The notes under the pieces were generated by a model, which made no database searches, was not told where the DNA came from, and saw only the letters and a program-made list of their open reading frames with translations. Made by a program: the position numbers and the translations under genes. This document shows, piece after piece, positions 4,963 to 26,231 of a stretch of 53,655 nt of DNA. Source of the stretch: a virus (Duplodnaviria; Heunggongvirae; Uroviricota; Caudoviricetes); IMG/VR virus record IMGVR_UViG_643348545_000009, positions 1-53,655 of that record. One strand, written 5' to 3'. How positions within the stretch are numbered: the first letter of the stretch is position 1; every line of letters starts with the position of its first letter.

Positions 4963-7900
4963 TCACGATGCGGTATCAAAATCGTCTGTATAGGATTTCA
5001 GGTAAAACAGAACCGGGTCCGGGATCCGAATTTGACTCGTATCATGAAGTATTGAACCACCCCTGTAAAAAAGCACACCTGCTTCATACCTGAATGTAAT
5101 TTCAACCCGCGCATCACCCTGTCCGGCAGGAATACCCCATGAGCCTGACGCACTTCCGCCAACATCAGAATATACCGGCTCATATCTGCTGGCGTTTTTG
5201 GAAATCTGGACCTCCCGCTCCCCGGTTTTGACTTTGCCTGACCTGGCATGAACGACAACTTTGTCATTTATCTTCATGATGAATTCACCTCTGGAAAATG
5301 AATACGCCATAAGCATAAGCTTGCGATCAAACGGCATGTTGTCTTTCAGCAAAATCATTTTCTGAAAAGTCAGCTGGTTCTGAGTCATTACGCCCTGCCC
5401 CATATCAACCGTGTATCCCTTGACGATATCACCAATGATTCGGTCAGCGCTCATCGTTCCATTAATGGTGCAGTCTTCCGCAATCGTCACGTTATTCAGC
5501 GTACCGGAACTGGCACTGATATTCCCGCTGATATCGGCATTACGGGCCGTCAGCCTGCCGTCCGGCGTCAGGGAGAATGCCGGGGGATTGCCGCCGCTGG
5601 TAATGGTGGGGGCGGTAAGAACCTTTATCAGGGCCTCATTGATAAACGTCTGTCCCCCCTGCGTGACCAGTGCGGGTGTGGTATCACCATTCTCCGGATT
5701 AATGAATGCCACACGGTCCGCTGCCAGCAGTATCTGGCTCTGCATCCCGTCAGGGGTGTTCTCAATACCGGCACCGATACCGGCAATATAGCGACGACCA
5801 TCCTGCATCTGCTGTAGCTTCACCGCCCACATGCTGTTCAGGTCATTATTTGTGTCCGTCTGCACACGCTGGATTTGCTGTATGGTGGCGTTCTGGTCCT
5901 CCAGCGTTTTACTGACCGTCTGCGTGATTTCATTGCGGGTTTCGGTGATGGTGGTCTGCATTTCCGCCATCTCGTCCTTCAGCTGACTGTTGTCAATCTC
6001 TGCCCACAGCGCCTCTGCCAGATGCGTTTTTCCTATCTTTTCCCGGAAAAGTTCCAGATAGCCCGCAGCATCATTGCTCGCCCGTCCACTGGCTTCCACA
6101 AAAGCAGATTTACCCACCAGGTTGACGCTGCGCACATAAAACCAGAAATCCTTTCCGGGCTTAATGTGCGGACCGGAGACACTCCACTGACTGCCGGTCC
6201 CCAGATAACGGGCAGAGGTTTCCACCTGTGCGGCGTCTGCAATTTTTGCCTCCGAAAACCAGAACTCAAACTGCACCGTCGGGTCATAAATGGTCAGTTT
6301 CGGGACTGCCGTTATCTGAAAATACCCCGGCGTCAGTTCAACACCGGCAGGCGCTGCCGGTGCGTTAATCCGGAACGTGGTGGTGGCGGGTTCGCCCTGC
6401 TGGCCATAGCTGTTAATCGCCCTGACCGTCAGGGTGTATTCCCCGAGAGGCAGGCCACTGAAACGGTGCTCCGTATCGGCAGTGATGGCGGTGGTCAGCA
6501 GGCGGCTGTTCTCACCGCTTCCACTGGTCAGGCGCAGACTGAAGCGCACGCCCTTCACCACCCGCGGCGTGTCCCATTTCGCCAGCGCCAGATACTGGCC
6601 GTCAGCTGCGCTCACCTCCACCGTCAGGTGCTGCACTGCCGGTGGGATAACGCTGTTCAGGGTGCCTGACTGCGGCTCAAAGCGGGCTCCGTTATCCACA
6701 ATGGCTTCTTTTTCCGGTACGTGCTGCACCGCCGTGATGGCAAAGGTGCCGTCCGTGTTTTCCCGGATGGCCACACAGCGGAACAGGCGACGGCGCAGTG
6801 ACGGCAGGGAGAGTCCCCACACCCCGTATGTCTCCACACCATCAGGCAGGGTACTGACCTGTATCCGGTCCGGCGCGGGGTGTGCGGTGATGTCCACACT
6901 CACCGGCTTACCGCTGCCGTTAATCAGGTTCACCGTCGATGCACCTGTCCCCGGAAGTGTCACTTCACGGTCCAGCGTCAGGGTGCGGGTGGCAGCATCG
7001 ATGGACAGGACACGTCCGCCGGTCAGGGTCCCGGCATAGTCGTTATCACAGATTTCAATAATGTCACCGGGTGTGTGCCGCAGCCCCTGAGACCCGAGTG
7101 TGAAATCCACCGTCTGCGTTTCCAGCAGTTCGGTCTTTATCACCCACAGCCCGGCACGGTGGGCCTGACCGCGGCTGGTACAGCCGAACGCGTCCATCTT
7201 CAGCAGGTTGCGTCCGTAGCGCAGTATGGCTTCCGGGTCTTCCACCAGTTCCGTGGAGGTCTGCCAGCCGTTCTGCGGGTCGGTGTAATTCACCTCCACC
7301 GCCGTGTGCCGGTCCTTCAGGGCACTGAAGCTGTAGCGGAACCCCACGCCGTTATCATCCACCACCACATCGCTGTTGGTGTACGGCCACACCACATCCG
7401 ACGGGCGGTCCTGAACGAACGTCAGCGTCTGGCCGTTCCATACCGGCATACAGCGCATCGCCGAGCAGAAATCACTGAGAACGTCCCACGCCTTACGCTG
7501 TTGTGCCAGGTACGCATTAAAGGTCATCCGCGGCTCTGTGCCCCCGAATCCATCCGGGACCGTCTGGTCGCAGTACTGCCCGATGGCATACAGCGCCCAC
7601 TTGTCCACATCCGCCGCCCCCAGGCGTTTTCCCATCCCGTAGCGCGGGTGAGTCAGCATGTCCCACAGGCACCAGGCCGGGTTGTTGCTGTATGCCGGTT
7701 TCAGACTGCCGTCCCAGATACCACTGTACGTGCGTTTTTCCGGGTCATAGTTTGACGGCACCTGGATGATGCGACCGCGGATATGGTAGTTCACCGTCAT
7801 CTGCTGGCCGCCGAACTGCTCCGCATCCACCTGCAGCCCCACAATGGCCGTGTTCGGGTAGCACTGTTTCACATCGATGATTTCGGTGTATGACGACCAG

Positions 7901-8732: not shown

Positions 8733-9413
8733 TTATCCCTGTCGACCAATAACCACCACCTTTCCGCCCCCGCCTTCATCACGGGTGCTGATGTCCTGAG
8801 AGATACGTCGTGAACCAACCAGCATTTCCCCGTAAGGCACCGGCATCGGGTTGCCCTGGGCAATCATGTTATCCAGTGAGGAAAAATACGTGTTCTGTTT
8901 ACCGTTATCCGTTGCCCGGTAATCCGGTGTCTTTGCCTTCGGGGCAAGCATCTGCGCCACACCACCCAGAATCATGCTGGCACCCAGTGAAAACAGCATC
9001 GTGGTGGCAGAAAAACCACCGGCTGCCAGGGCTGAACCCCATAACGCCATTGATGCCCCGGCCGTGAAGAAAGACCCCACAATGGCAGCTGCCCCCAGCA
9101 CAATCTGTAGTCCGCCCTTTCCGGCTCCGGCCAGTCGCGGCACAATATGGATAACCGTTCCCTCACCCAGTGGTTCGTGAAGGCGGGCATACACCGCCTC
9201 CGGTGCCGTATCCTCACCGGCAATGCGTATCTGGTACCAGCCTTCGTTCATCTGACGGCGGAATCCCGGCACCTGCTGCGACAGGGCGCGGATGGCTTCC
9301 GCCGCCGTGTTCACATACAGGCTGAAGCGGCGGCCAAATCGTTGTAAATCCCCGTGAAGGCAGATGTGTGCCAGTGGCGGTGACGCCAGACAGAATGCGT
9401 TCGTCGTTGCCAT
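8733..9413 (-). CDS. I: Tail assembly protein I
   Basis: 226 aa; near-colinear with lambda gpI as recalled (…ICLxGDLQRFGRR…, C-terminal …NGKQNTYFSSLDNM.AQGN..PV.YGE…). Confidence 0.9.
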   Translation of the reverse strand: MATTNAFCLASPPLAHICLHGDLQRFGRRFSLYVNTAAEAIRALSQQVPGFRRQMNEGWYQIRIAGEDTAPEAVYARLHEPLGEGTVIHIVPRLAGAGKGGLQIVLGAAAIVGSFFTAGASMALWGSALAAGGFSATTMLFSLGASMILGGVAQMLAPKAKTPDYRATDNGKQNTYFSSLDNMIAQGNPMPVPYGEMLVGSRRISQDISTRDEGGGGKVVVIGRQG

Positions 9414-10048
9414 TTTTCGGAATACCTCTCCCGTTTACTCAGTTGTTCAGGCAGATGGTGAAGCAGTTCACCGTTGCCGCAGTAAATGGCGGCATGATTA
9501 GCCACCGATGCGCCGAAGCAGCACAGCAGGATATCGCCCGGCAGTGCAGAGGACAGGGGCACCCGGTAAAAGCCCGTTGCCTCCATATTGTCCAGGTAAA
9601 GGTTCTGACCGTTGCACCACCAGTCATCCTCACGGTGAAAATCCGGCATATCAATGCCTGCCAGATGGTATGCATCCCGGAACAGCGTGTAACAGTCCGT
9701 CACCCCGTGCGCAAAGCGCCGTCCGGTCAGGTGCGGAACGCAGCGGAATTTGTGAATGTCACCCCGGCAGACCAGCCACCAGGGCAGGGCACTTTTTATC
9801 TGCAGTCGCCGGTCTGCCTCACTCAGCCAGGGCAGACCACCGGGATGACTGTGGACCAGCGCCACAATCTCACCCTGCATCTCCGCCCGCAGCCAGTCTT
9901 CCGGGGCAATACGAAAATACGCCTCCGGCGCTGCGGAGATATTCACACAGGGCAGGTACCGCTCGCCCTCCGTCGTGGTTATCACGAAGCCGCACGACTC
10001 CGCAGGCGCACACCGCCGGGCATGCGCCAATATATTGCTATAGAGCAT
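9311..10048 (-). CDS. K: Tail assembly protein K (JAB/MPN plus NlpC/P60-like)
   Basis: 245-aa ORF between the inserted ant module and I; HSHPGG motif of JAB/MPN domain; AGGAG upstream of ATG 10048. Confidence 0.85.
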   Translation of the reverse strand: MLYSNILAHARRCAPAESCGFVITTTEGERYLPCVNISAAPEAYFRIAPEDWLRAEMQGEIVALVHSHPGGLPWLSEADRRLQIKSALPWWLVCRGDIHKFRCVPHLTGRRFAHGVTDCYTLFRDAYHLAGIDMPDFHREDDWWCNGQNLYLDNMEATGFYRVPLSSALPGDILLCCFGASVANHAAIYCGNGELLHHLPEQLSKRERYSEKWQRRTHSVWRHRHWHTSAFTGIYNDLAAASACM

Positions 10049-10059
10049 GAGAACTCCTG

Positions 10060-10087
10060 ATAAAAAACCCAGCCGAAGCTGGGTTTG
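10060..10087 (-). terminator. Intrinsic terminator downstream of ant
   Basis: Hairpin AAACCCAGC-CGAA-GCTGGGTTT followed on the minus strand by a U-run. Confidence 0.5.
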
Positions 10088-10102: not shown

Positions 10103-11017
10103 TCAGTAGCGATGCAGTGAAGGCGGCAACTCTTTGTTCTTAAGCCTTTCCCACGCCAGAAGGTTCGTCGGCCCGTCAGGCTCATAAATATCTATATCCC
10201 GCGTGTGATTAATTAAAACGCCCCTCGCCCTCCCGATGGTATACGAGAACTCATAGCCGTAGTCGTGGCATATGCCGGAATAGCCAGACTGAATCAGTTT
10301 TAATGCGGGATACAACTCACGGAACAATGCCTGTGAGCGGTTAGCATAATCCCATAGCCATACAAGGCTGTTTGCTTCTTTTGCGGAAAGCTCGTTGGTG
10401 CTCTTCTCTTGTTTGCCGATTAACTCTCCTTCAAGCGGAACGCGAGCAGCAAGTGACAGAGCTTCGGTAAACTGCTCCTCGCTGATTTCTTTGTACGAAC
10501 ATCCAAAATGTGATTTCAGTGACGACCACATGGTGATCATCGCCTTCGCCTGTTTTTCCTTTGGCAGAGACTGACCGCGACTCATGACGAGTTGTTTAAT
10601 GGCTTCCTGCTGTTCAGTAGTGATTTTCCCCGGCAACGCCTTTTTAGCTTTCAGTGTATTTCCGTAAGACCCCGTTTTACGAATGGATGGCAAAACTTCA
10701 GCTGTCACCCATTTGCGGAATTTGTGCGGGACTGAACCTTTATTGACGGCATCGCGGCAACGCAGAACCAATGTATACATACCTGATTCGCTCACAATGC
10801 TTAAATTCTGCTCACCACCAAGGGTGTAACTTAAAGTTACTCCCTTTTCATCGTCATCAAGTGCAGTAAGCGCCTTGCGTGAGTTAGTCAGATTTAAAGC
10901 ATCACAAACATCTTTTGCTACAAACCACGGCTCACCGCACTTGTTGATGACGCGGATTTCACTGTCGCCGAATTTGAAGATGGTGAAATCGTTTTGTGCC
11001 TTTGCTATACTTTTCAT
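10103..11017 (-). CDS. ant: Phage antirepressor (Ant; Bro-N N-terminal domain)
   Basis: 304-aa ORF; N-terminal [30 protein letters not shown] resembles Bro-N/antirepressor domain; downstream of an Arc-like gene as in P22 immI. Confidence 0.85.
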
Positions 11018-11079
11018 GTCAATATTTCCTAATCCGATTTGTTGATACCGAAGCCCTGACTGTTACAGCAGTTGGGGCT

Positions 11080-11220
11080 TCAACTTTTTAGGCTGCGAAT
11101 AAGACGCTGCACTATTTCTGAATTTAAAGACCTGCCCTCCTCCTTAGCCTTTTCCTTCAATTTTTCTTTAATCTCTGGCGGGATACGAATCCCTAATGGA
11201 GCGATATCTCTAACTTTCAT
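11080..11220 (-). CDS. arc: Arc-like ribbon-helix-helix repressor
   Basis: 46-aa product MKVRDIAPLGIRIPPEIKEKLKEKAKEEGRSLNSEIVQRLIRSLKS resembles P22 Arc (…NGRSVNSEIYQRV…); internal ATG at 11218-11220 chosen over the longer ORF. Confidence 0.7.
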   Translation of the reverse strand: MKVRDIAPLGIRIPPEIKEKLKEKAKEEGRSLNSEIVQRLIRSLKS

Positions 11221-11330
11221 TTCTTTCCCAATTGCTACACCGTGATAACTAAATACTACACCGTGCTTATTTAAAGTCAAAGTTTTTTTGCCTACACTGT
11301 GTAGCAATGCTACAGCGTGCAGGAGGAAAA
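11221..11330. promoter_or_regulatory. Divergent arc/mnt control region with repeated operator-like motifs
   Basis: CTACACNGTG-like motif four times (11235-11244, 11256-11265, 11292-11301, 11311-11320); palindrome CTACAC-T-GTGTAG at 11292-11304; ATTGCTACAC at 11231-11240 is the inverted repeat of GTGTAGCAAT at 11299-11308. Confidence 0.5.
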
Positions 11331-11579
11331 ATGAAAGGTGCAAGAGATATCAGTCCCTTGGGAATTAGGATTCCAGACTATTTAAAGAAACGCATTCAGC
11401 AGGAAGCGGATAAAAACGGCAGATCAATGAACTCAGAGATTGTGCTTATCCTTCAAAAACATGTTGATAATCTTGATGGCCCTCGCTCACTTGAAGGATT
11501 CGCTAACCAAGAAGCTGACAAATTCAAAGAGGCGCTGCTTGAGACGCTAAAGACCATGTATGGTAAGGATGAAAAATAA
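11331..11579 (+). CDS. mnt: Mnt-like ribbon-helix-helix repressor
   Basis: MKGARDISPLGIRIPDYLKKRIQQEADKNGRSMNSEIVLILQ… resembles P22 Mnt (…NGRSMNSELLQIV…); AGGAGG 5 nt upstream of ATG 11331; divergent from arc-ant. Confidence 0.7.
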   Translation: MKGARDISPLGIRIPDYLKKRIQQEADKNGRSMNSEIVLILQKHVDNLDGPRSLEGFANQEADKFKEALLETLKTMYGKDEK

Positions 11580-12115
11580 TGCTGCACACAATTCATTTCT
11601 TATGCCCCGTTAACACTGCCACTGTTGGGCAACTTCAGAACCACTGTCTCACCGCATTATCTCAAGGCGCAACTGAATTAAATATCCATATATCAAGTCA
11701 GGGAGGGGAAACTGCCGCTGGCTTTACTGCGTATAACTTTCTTAAGTCACTCCCTGTTACCGTTAGAACTCACAACATAAGCAATGTTGAATCCATAGCT
11801 AATATCGTTTTCCTGGCTGGCTCAGAACGTTTCGCAAACCCATTATCAAGATTCCTGTTACATCCTCTATTATGGGTCTTTGCCACCCCAGCCGCCGACC
11901 ATGCCAGATTGAGAGAGTACGGGAAATGCCTCGATAACGATCTTGATCGCTTCGTTGAGACGTTCAATATCGACATCGGAACCCATATTAGGTGGGCATC
12001 CCTGATAGCAGACTCGACCATTTTGGATGCTAACAAGGCTCTTGAGCATGGCATAATTAATTCCATAAAAACTGCAAGGCTGGTATCCAATCAGGCAAAC
12101 TGGTGGGTTGTTTGA
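11579..12115 (+). CDS. ClpP-fold serine peptidase homologue, translationally coupled to mnt
   Basis: 178-aa ORF; ISSQGGETAAGFTAYNFL…SNVESIANIVFLAG…RFANPLSRFLLHPL aligns with the ClpP core (INSPGG…GQAASMGAFLLTAG…RFCLPNSRVMIHQP) with Ser and His retained; start ATG overlaps mnt stop (TAATG). Confidence 0.6.
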   Translation: MLHTIHFLCPVNTATVGQLQNHCLTALSQGATELNIHISSQGGETAAGFTAYNFLKSLPVTVRTHNISNVESIANIVFLAGSERFANPLSRFLLHPLLWVFATPAADHARLREYGKCLDNDLDRFVETFNIDIGTHIRWASLIADSTILDANKALEHGIINSIKTARLVSNQANWWVV

Positions 12116-12171
12116 TGGGTAAATCATGATTGCTCCTTATAAAAAAACCACCTGACGGTGGGCATAATCCA

Positions 12172-12870
12172 TTACTGCGAAAGTTTATTAATGGAAAGGA
12201 AACCGCCAAAATTGCCGACATTCCTGCGCAGTTCACACCCGCGCATGCACTTGCTGCATCTGTCCTTACGGATATCGGTGGTGGGTTTATCGAACTCATC
12301 CGCCACAGCCCCGCCCGTGTAACCACACTCATCAGAGCGGTAAGTCCACATACAGGTATTCGCCAGCATAATGCGACCGGGAAACAGCGCCCCGTCCGTC
12401 TCGGTCGGTGTGGCCAGCACAAACGAGGCCGTCATGGCTGTGAGCTGCGACATCTGCTCCACCACCCAGCGGTCCGTCAGCTCCTGCTCCGGGTCAGCCT
12501 CCGGATTGCCTGCCACAAAATTCACCGCATCCAGAAAACGCGCATACACCCGGCGACGAACCACCGTGGCCCCCACCAGGCTCTGCAAATCCTCCGCCAT
12601 CCCGGTGACCAGCCCGAACAGATTCGACACCGTCAGTGACGGGCGGGCACTGCTCCCTTTCCCGTTCATCTCAAAGCCGCTGCCGTCAATCGGGTACGCC
12701 TCATACTTCCGCCCCTGCCAGGTGACCGGCTCCCCTTTTTCATTCAGCTCATTACAGAAAAAATACCGCTCACCGCCCTGTACCGTCAGGTCGATTTCCC
12801 AGAGTACCACCCGCGGTGACTGCTCTGATTTAACCGACTCATTCAGGCTTTCTTCGTTGATCTCCTGCAT
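12172..12870 (-). CDS. L: Minor tail protein L
   Basis: Near-colinear with lambda gpL as recalled (…VVLWEIDLT..GGERYFFCNE.NEKGEPVTWQGR.Y…GNFGGFLSINKLSQ); ATG at 12868-12870. Confidence 0.9.
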   Translation of the reverse strand: MQEINEESLNESVKSEQSPRVVLWEIDLTVQGGERYFFCNELNEKGEPVTWQGRKYEAYPIDGSGFEMNGKGSSARPSLTVSNLFGLVTGMAEDLQSLVGATVVRRRVYARFLDAVNFVAGNPEADPEQELTDRWVVEQMSQLTAMTASFVLATPTETDGALFPGRIMLANTCMWTYRSDECGYTGGAVADEFDKPTTDIRKDRCSKCMRGCELRRNVGNFGGFLSINKLSQ

Positions 12871-12883
12871 AAACATCCACCCA

Positions 12884-12909
12884 TAAAAAAAGGGGCGCAA
12901 TGCGCCCCT
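12884..12909 (-). terminator. Intrinsic terminator downstream of porin moron
   Basis: Hairpin GGGGCGCA-(3 nt)-CGCCCC followed on the minus strand by an 8-U run. Confidence 0.5.
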
Positions 12910-13066
12910 GATAAAATAGTTCAATTAAAAAATCAAAAACGATGAAGGTAATAAAATGAAAATTAAATCAGCTAATAGCTGATCGCAGTGACCAGTGGAA
13001 ATATAACTTCCACTGATACAGGCCATCTGTGAGGGCAGATGGCCTGTATTTATTTACCAGTAATCA

Positions 13067-14230
13067 TCAGAACTGATAAGTCATACCAACAGCAACGATA
13101 TCATCCGTTGCAATGCCCGCATCCCTGGTAAACTTATTCTCATCAACCAGATTGATTTTATAATCAACATAGGTGGACATATTTTTATTGAAGTAATATT
13201 TCGCACCTACGTCAACATACTTAACCAAATCCTGGTCACCATAGTTTTTACCACCTACAATGACATCCTGAGCACGAGACTGCAGGAATGCCAGAGATGG
13301 ACGCAGACCGAAATCAAACTGATACTGCAGTACCGCTTCAAAGTTTTGCGCTTTATCTGCAACTCCTTTATCACCAAAGGTCGTCAGATTCTGAGTTTCG
13401 GAATATGTTGTAGCCAGGTAAAGGTTGTCAGCATCGTATTTTAGTCCGACTCCCCACATCTCAGCGTGTTTACCTTTTGCAACACTACCGGAATCAACAA
13501 CGATCTGCTTTTCAGTCACTTTACCGGTTAAAGGATCAGTTTGTTCAATCGTCAGAGTACCATTCAGACCTTTTTCCTGATTATTGGTTCGGTCCGCATT
13601 AATATATGCGGCAACGATACCAAAACCTTCATATTCATAACTGGCTGAGAAACCGTGACCATCACCATTAGCTTTCCGGAGATCACCCCGATCATTTTTA
13701 CCCTGGTACTGTGCCGCAAAATTCAGGCCATCGACAAGCCCAAAGAAATCTGTATTACGATAGGTTAATACCCCGGAAGTACGGGCTGTCATGAAGTTAT
13801 CGGTCTGGGTCCAGCCATCACCGCCAAACTCTGGTAATACGTCAGTATAAGAACCAACATCGTACGCAATACCATAGTTACGACCATAATCAATGGTGCC
13901 AAACTCACCAAACTTCAGACCTGCAAATGCAAGACGGGTTTTATTACCCGCAGCACCCTCTGATTCAGCTTTATTACCAGAGAACTGATATTCCCACTGA
14001 CCAAAACCAGTCAACTGGTCATTAATCTGAGTTTCACCTTTAAAGCCCAGACGTGCGTATGTCTTATCTCCATCATCCCCCTTATCACTGGAGAAATAAT
14101 GGAGTGCAGTTGCACGCCCATACACATCAAGTTTATTGCCATCTTTATTGTATACTTCTGCAGCCTGCGCCCCCGCTGCAAAAATTACAGCTGCTGCCAC
14201 AGCTGAAAGTGCCACTGTCATTTTTTTCAT
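13067..14230 (-). CDS. General porin, OmpC/OmpF/NmpC/Lc family (phage-borne moron)
   Basis: 387 aa; signal peptide ending AQA; porin motifs throughout; C-terminal …VAVGMTYQF aromatic terminus; AAGGA upstream of ATG; AT-rich own promoter region 14231-14436. Confidence 0.9.
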
Positions 14231-24293: not shown

Positions 24294-26231
24294 TCAGCCG
24301 CCGGACGCACTGCCGTAGTTCACTCCGGTGATCACCGCCACCGCCGCGGTACGGCGACGACGCCAGTTGATCCAGCGCTCCGCACGGATGGCCACACTGC
24401 CTGTCTGGAACATGGAAACCAGCTCCACCGGCGACGGCGTGGTACTGTCGCCGGTCGGCTCAGACTGCATTTCCAGTGATGCCTCGCGGGACATATCCAC
24501 TGCCACGCCGCCGTCATCCGCCAGATAAATATCCGGGGCATTCACCAGCACCAGCTGGTCACCCACGTACTGGGAGACAATCACCGGCAGCCCCTGGAAG
24601 GAGCCACCCAGCAGGGTCATGTCCGGGTATTCTTTCTGACCCAGCGCATTTTTACGCATGGACAGCGCCAGGGCATTGGTGCTGGACATCAGCCAGACAG
24701 CACCAGTGGGCTGCAGGTTTGCTGCCACAAACTGTCCAAACGCCGCCTCTGCATCCGCATCCGGGTTACCGCTTGATGCCGTGCCCTTCACATCATGGGT
24801 GATGGACGCCGGGGAGACATCTGCCACCGCCGCTTTTTTCGGGTCCACAAAGTCTGTATCCAGACGCGCCACCACCGCTTCCGCCAGCGCATTACGGACC
24901 AGTGCATCAGCAGCCGGACTGGAAAAACGGATCAATTCTTCCGTCAGTACCGCAATGGCCGACACCTTCGCATGACTGAAGGTGATGGATTCAAAATCAA
25001 ACTTCGTCAGGGGTTTTGCCTTACCCTCACCCACCCAGCCGGCAGCACCGCCCGACACCTGGGCGTGCACACGGATATTGAACGGCACCTGACGAAGTGC
25101 AGGGATCCCGCCCTGACCAAATCGCCCGATAATGGTCTGAGGACGCAGGTAATCAATAAAGTCCTGTGCGTATTCCTGATATTCAGACAGGCTGCCTGCC
25201 CACTGCGGATCCGTGGTGGTCCCCGCGCCCACTGCCGATTTCAGGACATGATGCAGACGACTGTCATCCGGATACTGACGACGGGCCACTTCCAGGGCTT
25301 CAGAGCGGACACCTTTAGCCGCAGCCAGCGATTTGGCAAAACGTGCGAAACCAATCCCCTTATCCAGTTTCTGCTCCACACGGATCACCGGCGCAGAAGC
25401 CACCGCGGCCACATTCCCGTTACCGGCCTGTTTCACCGGCTGCGCCGTGGCGGCCTTACCGGCTTCCAGTTCACGCAGGCGCTTCAGGTGCGCATCCACC
25501 TGACGTATTTCCGCTGCGGTGTTGTCGTAATGCTCTTCCTCCTCCACATCCAGCGTGCGCCCTTCCTCTGCGGCTTTGGTCATGACCTCCTCAAGGGAGG
25601 CTGCCAGTGCTGCACGCTTGTTTTCAAAACTTTTAATCTGTTCGCCAATATTCATTATGGTCTTTTCCTTATGAAAAACGGTTGTTGACTGTGCCGCAGC
25701 GCCGGCAGAAGATGCGATTTTCACCACCGGTTTCCGGTTGCCGGACGCGGCAGAAAACTGGCGGTCGTAAGATTTAATGGTCCGGATGGTGCATTCCGCA
25801 TTCGCGGGCACGGTGACGGCAGACACCTCCATCAGCTCCCAGCGCAGAAAATGCAGTCCGCCTCCGTCCAGAAAGGTGTATTCATGGGGACGGAAGCCCA
25901 CGGACAGCCCCCTGACCAGCCCGGTCTTAATGGCCGCCCAGGCCTCATCCAGCCGGGCAGCCAGTTGCGATGGCATATCCGGCACGGGCTTCGCCAGTGT
26001 TGCCGTGATTTCCAGCCCTTCGCTGACCCGGCGCACCGTACACTGCCCCACCGGGCGGGAATGGTCATGCTGCCAGAGAAACGGGATCGCACTGCCAAAC
26101 TCCGCGCCCTCCGGCTCCAGGATGTCACCATCCCGATCCGGAGAAGGCGTTGACGCAATCCCGGTGATCACCCGCTCATCCTCACTGAAGGATTTCACCG
26201 TCAGCAGGGAGCAGGCCCGTTTAAGAGTCAC
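24294..26231 (-). CDS. Fused prohead protease (HK97 S78-like) and major capsid protein
   Basis: 645 aa; N-terminal …FLWQHD…GLSVGFRP…VSAVTVPAN… protease-like, C-terminal …GGAAGWVGEGKAKP…ELIRFSSPAAD… HK97 capsid-like; GTG start with AGGAGG 5 nt upstream. Confidence 0.75.
   Translation of the reverse strand: MTLKRACSLLTVKSFSEDERVITGIASTPSPDRDGDILEPEGAEFGSAIPFLWQHDHSRPVGQCTVRRVSEGLEITATLAKPVPDMPSQLAARLDEAWAAIKTGLVRGLSVGFRPHEYTFLDGGGLHFLRWELMEVSAVTVPANAECTIRTIKSYDRQFSAASGNRKPVVKIASSAGAAAQSTTVFHKEKTIMNIGEQIKSFENKRAALAASLEEVMTKAAEEGRTLDVEEEEHYDNTAAEIRQVDAHLKRLRELEAGKAATAQPVKQAGNGNVAAVASAPVIRVEQKLDKGIGFARFAKSLAAAKGVRSEALEVARRQYPDDSRLHHVLKSAVGAGTTTDPQWAGSLSEYQEYAQDFIDYLRPQTIIGRFGQGGIPALRQVPFNIRVHAQVSGGAAGWVGEGKAKPLTKFDFESITFSHAKVSAIAVLTEELIRFSSPAADALVRNALAEAVVARLDTDFVDPKKAAVADVSPASITHDVKGTASSGNPDADAEAAFGQFVAANLQPTGAVWLMSSTNALALSMRKNALGQKEYPDMTLLGGSFQGLPVIVSQYVGDQLVLVNAPDIYLADDGGVAVDMSREASLEMQSEPTGDSTTPSPVELVSMFQTGSVAIRAERWINWRRRRTAAVAVITGVNYGSASGG

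Follow-up and report, generated by a model that had tools for sequence, protein, structure and literature searches.

The 53,655-nucleotide stretch of DNA of a temperate E. coli phage analysed here (the window), positions 1 to 53,655 of the caudoviricete record IMGVR_UViG_643348545_000009, carries a short clp gene (11579..12115, + strand, stop codon included; 178 amino acids, aa) that overlaps the end of an mnt-like repressor gene (11331..11579, + strand; 82 aa). As judged from its sequence and its predicted structure, this gene is a phage-borne member of a subfamily of short ClpP paralogs without the N-terminal region, whose prototype is ClpP1 of Pseudomonas plecoglossicida (PpClpP1; PDB 9UXT; PMC12900304). 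As an explanation of the whole we favour, with a probability of roughly 55%, a phage-borne short ClpP that acts through mixed complexes with the ClpP of the host and provides an accessory ('moron') function. The kind of protein is already known (it was characterised in 2026, and RefSeq gives it a generic ClpP label); what is new is the phage context and its implication.

The clp product is a short ClpP without a catalytic aspartate

The clp product matches the Pfam family CLP_protease (PF00574) over residues 24-165 with 44.9 bits against a cutoff of 20.2 (E 1.6e-11). Its AlphaFold model, built with 48 homologues, reached a mean predicted local distance difference test score (pLDDT) of 93.1 and a predicted template modelling score (pTM) of 0.89. 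In Foldseek, the model superimposed on PpClpP1 (9uxt_A) with a template modelling (TM) score of 0.94 and a root-mean-square deviation of 1.5 A over 180 columns, and on E. coli ClpP with a TM score of 0.83; among its fold matches were also the structures of the two-paralog ClpP1/ClpP2 systems of Listeria, Mycobacterium and P. aeruginosa. Sequence and model thus place the clp product in the ClpP / peptidase S14 superfamily, with a ClpP fold. Direct comparison with 9uxt_A gave an E value of 2.3e-35 in phmmer, and BLASTP aligned the two proteins from end to end at 40% identity (E 8e-45).

Ser72 (codon 11792-11794) and His95 (codon 11861-11863) of the window protein align with Ser97 and His122 of E. 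coli ClpP, and Ser146 (codon 12014-12016) stands at the canonical aspartate position, Asp171 in E. coli (all in mature numbering); an aspartate, Asp145, lies one residue before it. In the E. coli ClpP sequence used for this comparison, Ser111, His136 and Asp185 came out at the expected precursor positions. Across the 210 family sequences (the window protein plus 209 relatives), which were aligned together with E. coli ClpP as the 211th, Ser72 and His95 do not vary. The third triad position, counted over the same 210, is occupied by alanine in 64, glycine in 58, serine in 28, arginine in 15 and proline in 9. On this alignment, the missing Ser-His-Asp triad is a trait of the family and not a defect of the window copy. 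A first-pass annotation of this DNA had read a ClpP catalytic core with retained Ser and His positions by eye and made no claim about the aspartate; the profile match, the superpositions and the invariance of both residues bear out that reading.

Compared with E. coli ClpP, to which it is about 20% identical, the window protein shares the fold and the positions of the catalytic Ser and His, but it is shorter at the N-terminus by about 36 residues relative to the precursor and by about 22 relative to the mature form, so that the axial-loop region is missing. It begins 2 residues ahead of the first core strand, and the number of residues before window residue 3 has a median of 4 in the family versus 40 in the E. 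coli ClpP precursor. It also differs from housekeeping ClpP at the presumed pocket in which ClpX or ClpA docks, where most of the hydrophobic residues are replaced, largely by polar ones (Y60>N35, Y62>H37, F82>S57, I90>H65 and L114>N87, E. coli ClpP > window), and three positions are kept (M92>I, F112>F and L189>V). Against the NCBIfam ClpP models the protein scored 18.5-40.2 bits and did not reach the cutoffs of 228-361. A canonical housekeeping ClpP can be ruled out on three grounds: the absent aspartate, the absent axial loops and the NCBIfam scores below cutoff.

Far closer is the likeness to PpClpP1, the shortest ClpP characterised, which likewise lacks the N-terminal helical region (183 aa, versus 178 in the window protein; PMC12900304). 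Its catalytic residues are Ser73, His96 and Pro151, with the serine and the histidine placed as in other ClpPs (PMC12900304); they correspond to Ser72, His95 and Ser146, so that the third residue is non-acidic in both proteins. PpClpP1 forms a homotetradecamer with an axial pore of 42.7 A, and its activity depends on Ser and His while the third residue is dispensable (PMC12900304). As a peptidase it is weak, with a catalytic efficiency 13-fold below the value for PpClpP2, the canonical paralog; it shows no binding to ClpX and, unless ClpX and canonical ClpP are present, degrades no protein substrate (PMC12900304). Together with PpClpP2, it assembles into a stable heterotetradecamer to which ClpX binds and whose activity exceeds that of both homocomplexes (PMC12900304). 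A second subunit of low activity, possibly working in mixed complexes, is also what links the window protein to the two-paralog systems mentioned above, a likeness supported for PpClpP1P2; the paralogs of those systems are full-length and chromosomal, whereas here a truncated subunit comes from a prophage. The paper on PpClpP1 frames the family as a chromosomal paralog and drug target and does not mention phages (PMC12900304), and the window gene differs from its prototype in being phage-borne and in overlapping a repressor gene. The earlier remark that no function was known for such a gene in this context thus needs qualifying: it holds for the phage context within the literature searched, but a 40%-identical relative of the protein has been solved and assayed (PMC12900304).

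The clp gene is joined to an mnt-like repressor gene

The two genes meet in the sequence TAATG, in which the stop codon TAA of the mnt-like gene (11577-11579) and the ATG of clp (11579-11581) have one base in common. A Shine-Dalgarno-like AAGGA lies 9 nucleotides (nt) 5' of this ATG. The start of the 178-aa open reading frame (ORF) at an ATG overlapping the mnt stop was as the first-pass annotation had described it; of the translational coupling that it added, the overlap stands, and coupling itself is a reading of that overlap. Between the window gene and its Pectobacterium orthologue, the ratio of nonsynonymous to synonymous substitution rates (dN/dS) is 0.079 at a dS of 1.6, and because of this ratio we take the clp ORF to be a real gene under strong purifying selection.

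The upstream gene encodes a ribbon-helix-helix (RHH) protein (Pfam Arc, E 7.4e-8). Its start is likelier at 11331, where AGGAGG precedes the ATG by 5 nt, than at 11307, the start of the longest ORF. In an E. coli locus of 99.3% identity, the Prokaryotic Genome Annotation Pipeline (PGAP) names the product 'Arc family DNA-binding protein', and the Pectobacterium counterpart matches Repressor_Mnt. With its Arc/RHH domain, its orientation divergent from arc-ant and the presence of a sar RNA, the gene is, by sequence, Mnt-like.

A phage-borne branch of a cellular family

Is the short clp gene a rarity, and is its union with mnt common in the family? The gene is not rare: it was found in 128 of 5426 complete E. 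coli genomes, always on the chromosome and including the type strain and APEC O1, and 128 stretches in IMG/VR encode a relative. In RefSeq and PGAP its product is labelled 'ATP-dependent Clp protease proteolytic subunit'. An 'Arc family DNA-binding protein' is annotated next to it in 27 of 30 sampled E. coli rows. Cultured phage records contain it only six times in 50,697. Relatives also occur in prophages of Klebsiella, Pectobacterium, Leclercia, Proteus and Pantoea, and at E <= 1e-30 against the family profile the family comprises 219 clusters (50% identity).

The union with mnt is confined to the closest members. All members at least 79% identical, from E. coli and Pectobacterium, have an Mnt-like ORF ending on the clp ATG, and the TAATG junction, along with the AAGGA motif, is present in each of 42 mnt-coupled loci (42/42), even in Pectobacterium, where the protein identity is 79%. 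Among 44 mnt-coupled loci, 35 are situated in P22-like genomes, in the interval between the gp16 homologue and the tailspike gene, and 9 at lambda-like K/L sites. In a mosaic exchange unit of 676 bp (11487..12162, + strand), which consists of the last 30 mnt codons, clp and a hairpin, the window shares 97-98% identity with P22-like phages whose arc, N-terminal part of mnt and ant are at most 81% identical or cannot be aligned. Because this unit is so well conserved amid divergent immI sequence, the mnt end and clp move as one mosaic block.

Members at 73% identity or less (from Klebsiella, Leclercia, a second E. coli type, Pantoea, Proteus and Chromobacterium) have no RHH or immI neighbour at any of the 20 genome loci and roughly 35 viral loci. 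Each is a lone gene on the strand opposite the flanking late genes, and its usual site is between the Rz/LysC lysis cassette and the terminase. An obligatory two-gene system of RHH and Clp protein was rejected on this account, the RHH neighbour being found only in the subclade of at least 79% identity. The genes flanking the Enterobacterales genome loci are mostly phage genes, and antisense, moron-type placement of relatives was seen in more than 30 other phage contigs; such an orientation among lytic genes has been described as a hallmark of accessory loci (PMC7067206). Taking the chromosomal members discussed below into account, the subfamily is, as far as sequences tell, cellular in origin with a large phage-borne branch.

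Our literature searches for a ClpP paralog of a prophage or phage found no relevant paper. What the present analysis adds is a large branch of the short ClpP subfamily that sits on temperate phages at accessory-gene sites, which was not considered in the PpClpP1 paper, and within it one subclade welded to the mnt repressor gene. Both current labels, the ATP-dependent subunit of RefSeq and the 'head maturation protease' of one phage record, mislead. The structure and biochemistry of PpClpP1 (2026) offer a direct experimental template for the window protein.

Proposed role in lysogens

Mnt is the repressor that holds the antirepressor gene ant off in P22 lysogens. In the window, clp would share the promoter of mnt, its translation would keep pace with that of Mnt, and lysogens would thus make its product as long as the antirepressor stays off. 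Such expression is a reasonable inference from the position of clp opposite the late genes, in the ant moron that houses the prophage-expressed sieA of P22; it would also be expected because mnt keeps ant off and because antisense genes of this sort are typically lysogen-expressed accessory loci (PMC7067206). The clp product is predicted to form a ClpP-like barrel whose wide pore is ungated and whose Ser-His site has little intrinsic activity; alone, it would be unable to dock ClpX or ClpA. With host ClpP it may form mixed tetradecamers, as PpClpP1 does with PpClpP2, and these would change the activity or the specificity of host ClpXP and ClpAP. The prophage might benefit by interfering with incoming phages, by stabilising lysogeny or by altering the stress proteolysis of the host. 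Most likely this benefit is an accessory function, and a step in virion assembly is unlikely. Since most relatives have no immI region around them, a general accessory role is more probable than one confined to immI.

ClpXP and ClpAP are widely held to control many phage and host regulators, among them lambda O, the Mu repressor and antitoxins. If made in lysogens, a ClpP subunit supplied by the phage would offer the prophage an easy means of retuning these proteases. We tentatively speculate, and would ourselves rather bet against it in this full form, that lysogens are given a truncated, unfoldase-blind ClpP subunit that co-assembles with host ClpP and rewires ClpXP and ClpAP for the benefit of the prophage. 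Such a subunit swap could destroy or stabilise proteins of superinfecting phages, or lock lysogeny through an altered turnover of regulators; in the mnt-coupled version, the dose of clp would be tied to the antirepressor switch. If true, the phage-encoded exchange of a subunit of a host protease would be a mode of lysogenic conversion that has not been described so far.

Several observations weigh against our explanation. Assembly, activity and mixing with canonical ClpP are properties of PpClpP1, whereas the window protein is known from its sequence and model, and an identity of 40% makes carrying these properties over uncertain; the third triad residue itself differs, being Pro151 in the prototype and Ser146 in the window protein. 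The predicted blindness towards ClpX and ClpA depends on which residues of E. coli ClpP are taken, after the general acyldepsipeptide (ADEP) and ClpX literature, to form the pocket. The promoter scan revealed no + strand promoter upstream of mnt at its threshold. Furthermore, orthologues of about 41% identity in Massilia/Telluria and related betaproteobacteria are chromosomal (loci L021-L029 and L031), and a PpClpP1-like gene, 68% identical to 9UXT (locus L118, on short contigs), lies directly upstream of tig, which encodes trigger factor. Because purely chromosomal members exist, a phage-specific role cannot be a property of the whole family. Finally, no family of PADLOC-DB v2 was matched by the Clp-like or the Mnt-like protein at E <= 0.1.

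Alternative explanations

Could clp instead be a superinfection-exclusion or anti-phage effector, that is, a lysogen-expressed protease in a sieA-like position that destroys proteins of incoming phages or triggers abortive infection? We regard this as unlikely as a separate explanation, although it is compatible with mixed complexes as their downstream biological role. The gene shares its moron with sieA of P22 (PMC2629481, PMC10883804), its relatives have the antisense moron placement described above, and at the equivalent position of the P22-like prophage BTP1 a lysogen-expressed antisense RNA causes superinfection exclusion (PMC7067206). In P22, the gene adjoining mnt is orf59a and not, as had been stated, the exclusion gene; sieA comes after it and has its own promoter (PMC10883804). 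The reported site of action of SieA is the inner membrane (PMC10883804); the clp product, a ClpP homologue, has no predicted membrane feature, and its gene is joined to the end of mnt. The other accessory genes of the P22-type ant moron, orf59a and hkcC, share with sieA and clp the niche beside mnt opposite the late genes; no sequence relationship of any of the three to clp was found, with no direct comparison made to SieA. Neither a PADLOC match nor supporting literature was found for defence, and relatives have no conserved partner or sensor gene beside them. The dependence of PpClpP1 on ClpX and canonical ClpP for protein degradation and the presence of chromosomal orthologues in non-defence contexts also speak against this reading.

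The strict conservation of the mnt overlap down to Pectobacterium and the joint travel of the mnt end, clp and hairpin as one unit would rather suggest a dedicated immI regulator, a protease that processes or degrades Ant, Arc, Mnt or the primary repressor and thereby adds a post-translational layer to the antirepressor switch. We consider this very unlikely. It is weakened because relatives of at most 73% identity stand alone at other moron sites, without RHH or immI genes, and are nevertheless conserved in phages. Moreover, Shiga-toxin (Stx) phages also have an ant-arc-mnt module between tail genes K and L, but theirs lacks clp.

A small RHH gene that overlaps the following gene by 1 nt is reminiscent of operons of RHH antitoxins and their toxins, and in APEC O1 a YafO-family toxin gene is located next door. 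Nevertheless, a type II toxin-antitoxin-like pair, in which the Mnt-like protein would be the antitoxin and repressor and the ClpP-like protein the toxin of an addiction or abortive-infection module, is highly improbable: the RHH gene is a genuine mnt accompanied by ant, sar and arc, most family members stand alone, the pairing being restricted to the mnt-coupled subclade, and PpClpP1 was over-expressed in and purified from E. coli (PMC12900304), which speaks against toxicity.

Least of all do we credit a prohead (head-maturation) protease, intact or decayed, which is the annotation of the gene in the GenBank record of phage phiv205-1: the best PHROG and NCBIfam matches are ClpP-related head-maturation proteases (PHROG 94, E 1.6e-20; NF045542, E 3.7e-13), with distant similarity over the ClpP core, but the NF045542 score of 49.7 bits stays below the family cutoff of 120, the match to the cellular-type ClpP1 is far stronger, the gene differs in size and lies outside the head module, antisense to it and between tail genes K and L, and its dN/dS argues against decay. 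The phage already has a head protease of its own, a fusion of an S78 prohead protease with an HK97-type major capsid protein (24294..26231, - strand; 645 aa), which shows no similarity to the clp product (BLASTP E 0.25), and in E. coli NCTC9112 a near-identical prophage segment occurs with a lambda-type head module containing an S49 protease. On position, strand, sub-threshold score and the S78 protease this candidate was rejected, and the label in phiv205-1 is an annotation transfer.

The immI region and the edges of the ant moron

In the window, the ant moron is inserted between the lambda-type tail genes K (9311..10048) and L (12172..12924), which lie on the strand opposite clp. Among P22-like phages, the 'ant moron' of Villafane et al. 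(2008) is known for its high gene flux (PMC2629481). The P22-type immI set is complete here (ant, sar, arc and the divergent mnt), with clp as its last member. The ant gene (10103..11017, - strand) encodes an antirepressor with Bro-N (E 4.5e-26) and P22_AR_C (E 2.5e-20) domains that matches PHROG 245 (E 1.5e-104). It is followed by the antisense RNA sar (11019..11085, + strand; Rfam RF00262, 69.4 bits at a gathering score of 43, E 1.1e-13), whose terminator hairpin was located at 11050-11081 by the terminator scan, and by the arc-like repressor gene (11080..11220, - strand; 46 aa; Pfam Arc, E 2.7e-12), for which PGAP gives a coding sequence of the same size. The sar RNA shows that a complete P22-type immI control circuit resides in a lambda-like siphovirus.

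Between arc and mnt lies a divergent control region (11233..11319) with four repeats of the CTACAC(C/T)GTG type (CTACACCGTG-type copies) and a palindrome at about 11291-11306. From their sequence, repeats and palindrome are candidate Arc/Mnt operators, unlike the operators of P22. The promoter scan identified a Pant-like promoter, TTGACT-16-TAGTAT, on the - strand (11280-11253). On the + strand, TTTAAA-17-TACACT (11270-11298) can be read by eye as a possible promoter for mnt, with 8 of 12 matches and below the scan threshold.

No + strand terminator for the mnt-clp unit was found by the terminator scan. Because none follows clp (12116..12924), transcription of the unit would continue into tail gene L in the antisense direction. 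In the late direction, an intrinsic terminator (12141..12161, - strand) with hairpin and T-run, CCACCGTCAGGTGG TTTTTTT, marks the tail-L edge, and by alignment a near-copy of it is found at the tail-K edge, at about 10062-10083. Both belong to an element of about 40 bp common to the two moron edges (10046..10083 and 12125..12161) that consists of the late-strand hairpin, the T-run, AGGAG and an ATG. At the K edge this ATG is the start codon of K; at the L edge it opens an ORF of 85 aa (11870..12127, - strand). The edge elements may be the footprint of the moron insertion or a device that meters late transcription. The antisense ORF behind the L-edge copy of Shine-Dalgarno motif and ATG is unlikely to be a functional gene and probably meaningless, because the synonymous sites of clp are saturated.

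Further accessory genes were noted in the vicinity of clp or of its relatives. In the window, a full-length OmpC-type porin gene (13067..14230, - strand; 387 aa; Porin_1, E 1.8e-139) between tail genes L and M represents a second accessory insertion in the tail cluster and is a candidate for lysogenic conversion or receptor masking. In the P22-like prophage of APEC O1 (locus L011), the YafO-family type II toxin gene (6586..7035) lies right after clp on the opposite strand, an arrangement that recurs in several P22-like loci of IMG/VR (L059, L060, L064, L069 and L075). A colicin-domain gene (PF01024; locus L116, 1603..3045) lies among the terminase genes of a prophage that also has a stand-alone short clp. 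Around the chromosomal Massilia/Telluria orthologues, the neighbourhood is conserved and comprises genes for xanthine dehydrogenase, a xanthine/uracil permease, hydroxyisourate hydrolase (HIUase) and chemotaxis receptors, i.e. a setting of purine catabolism.

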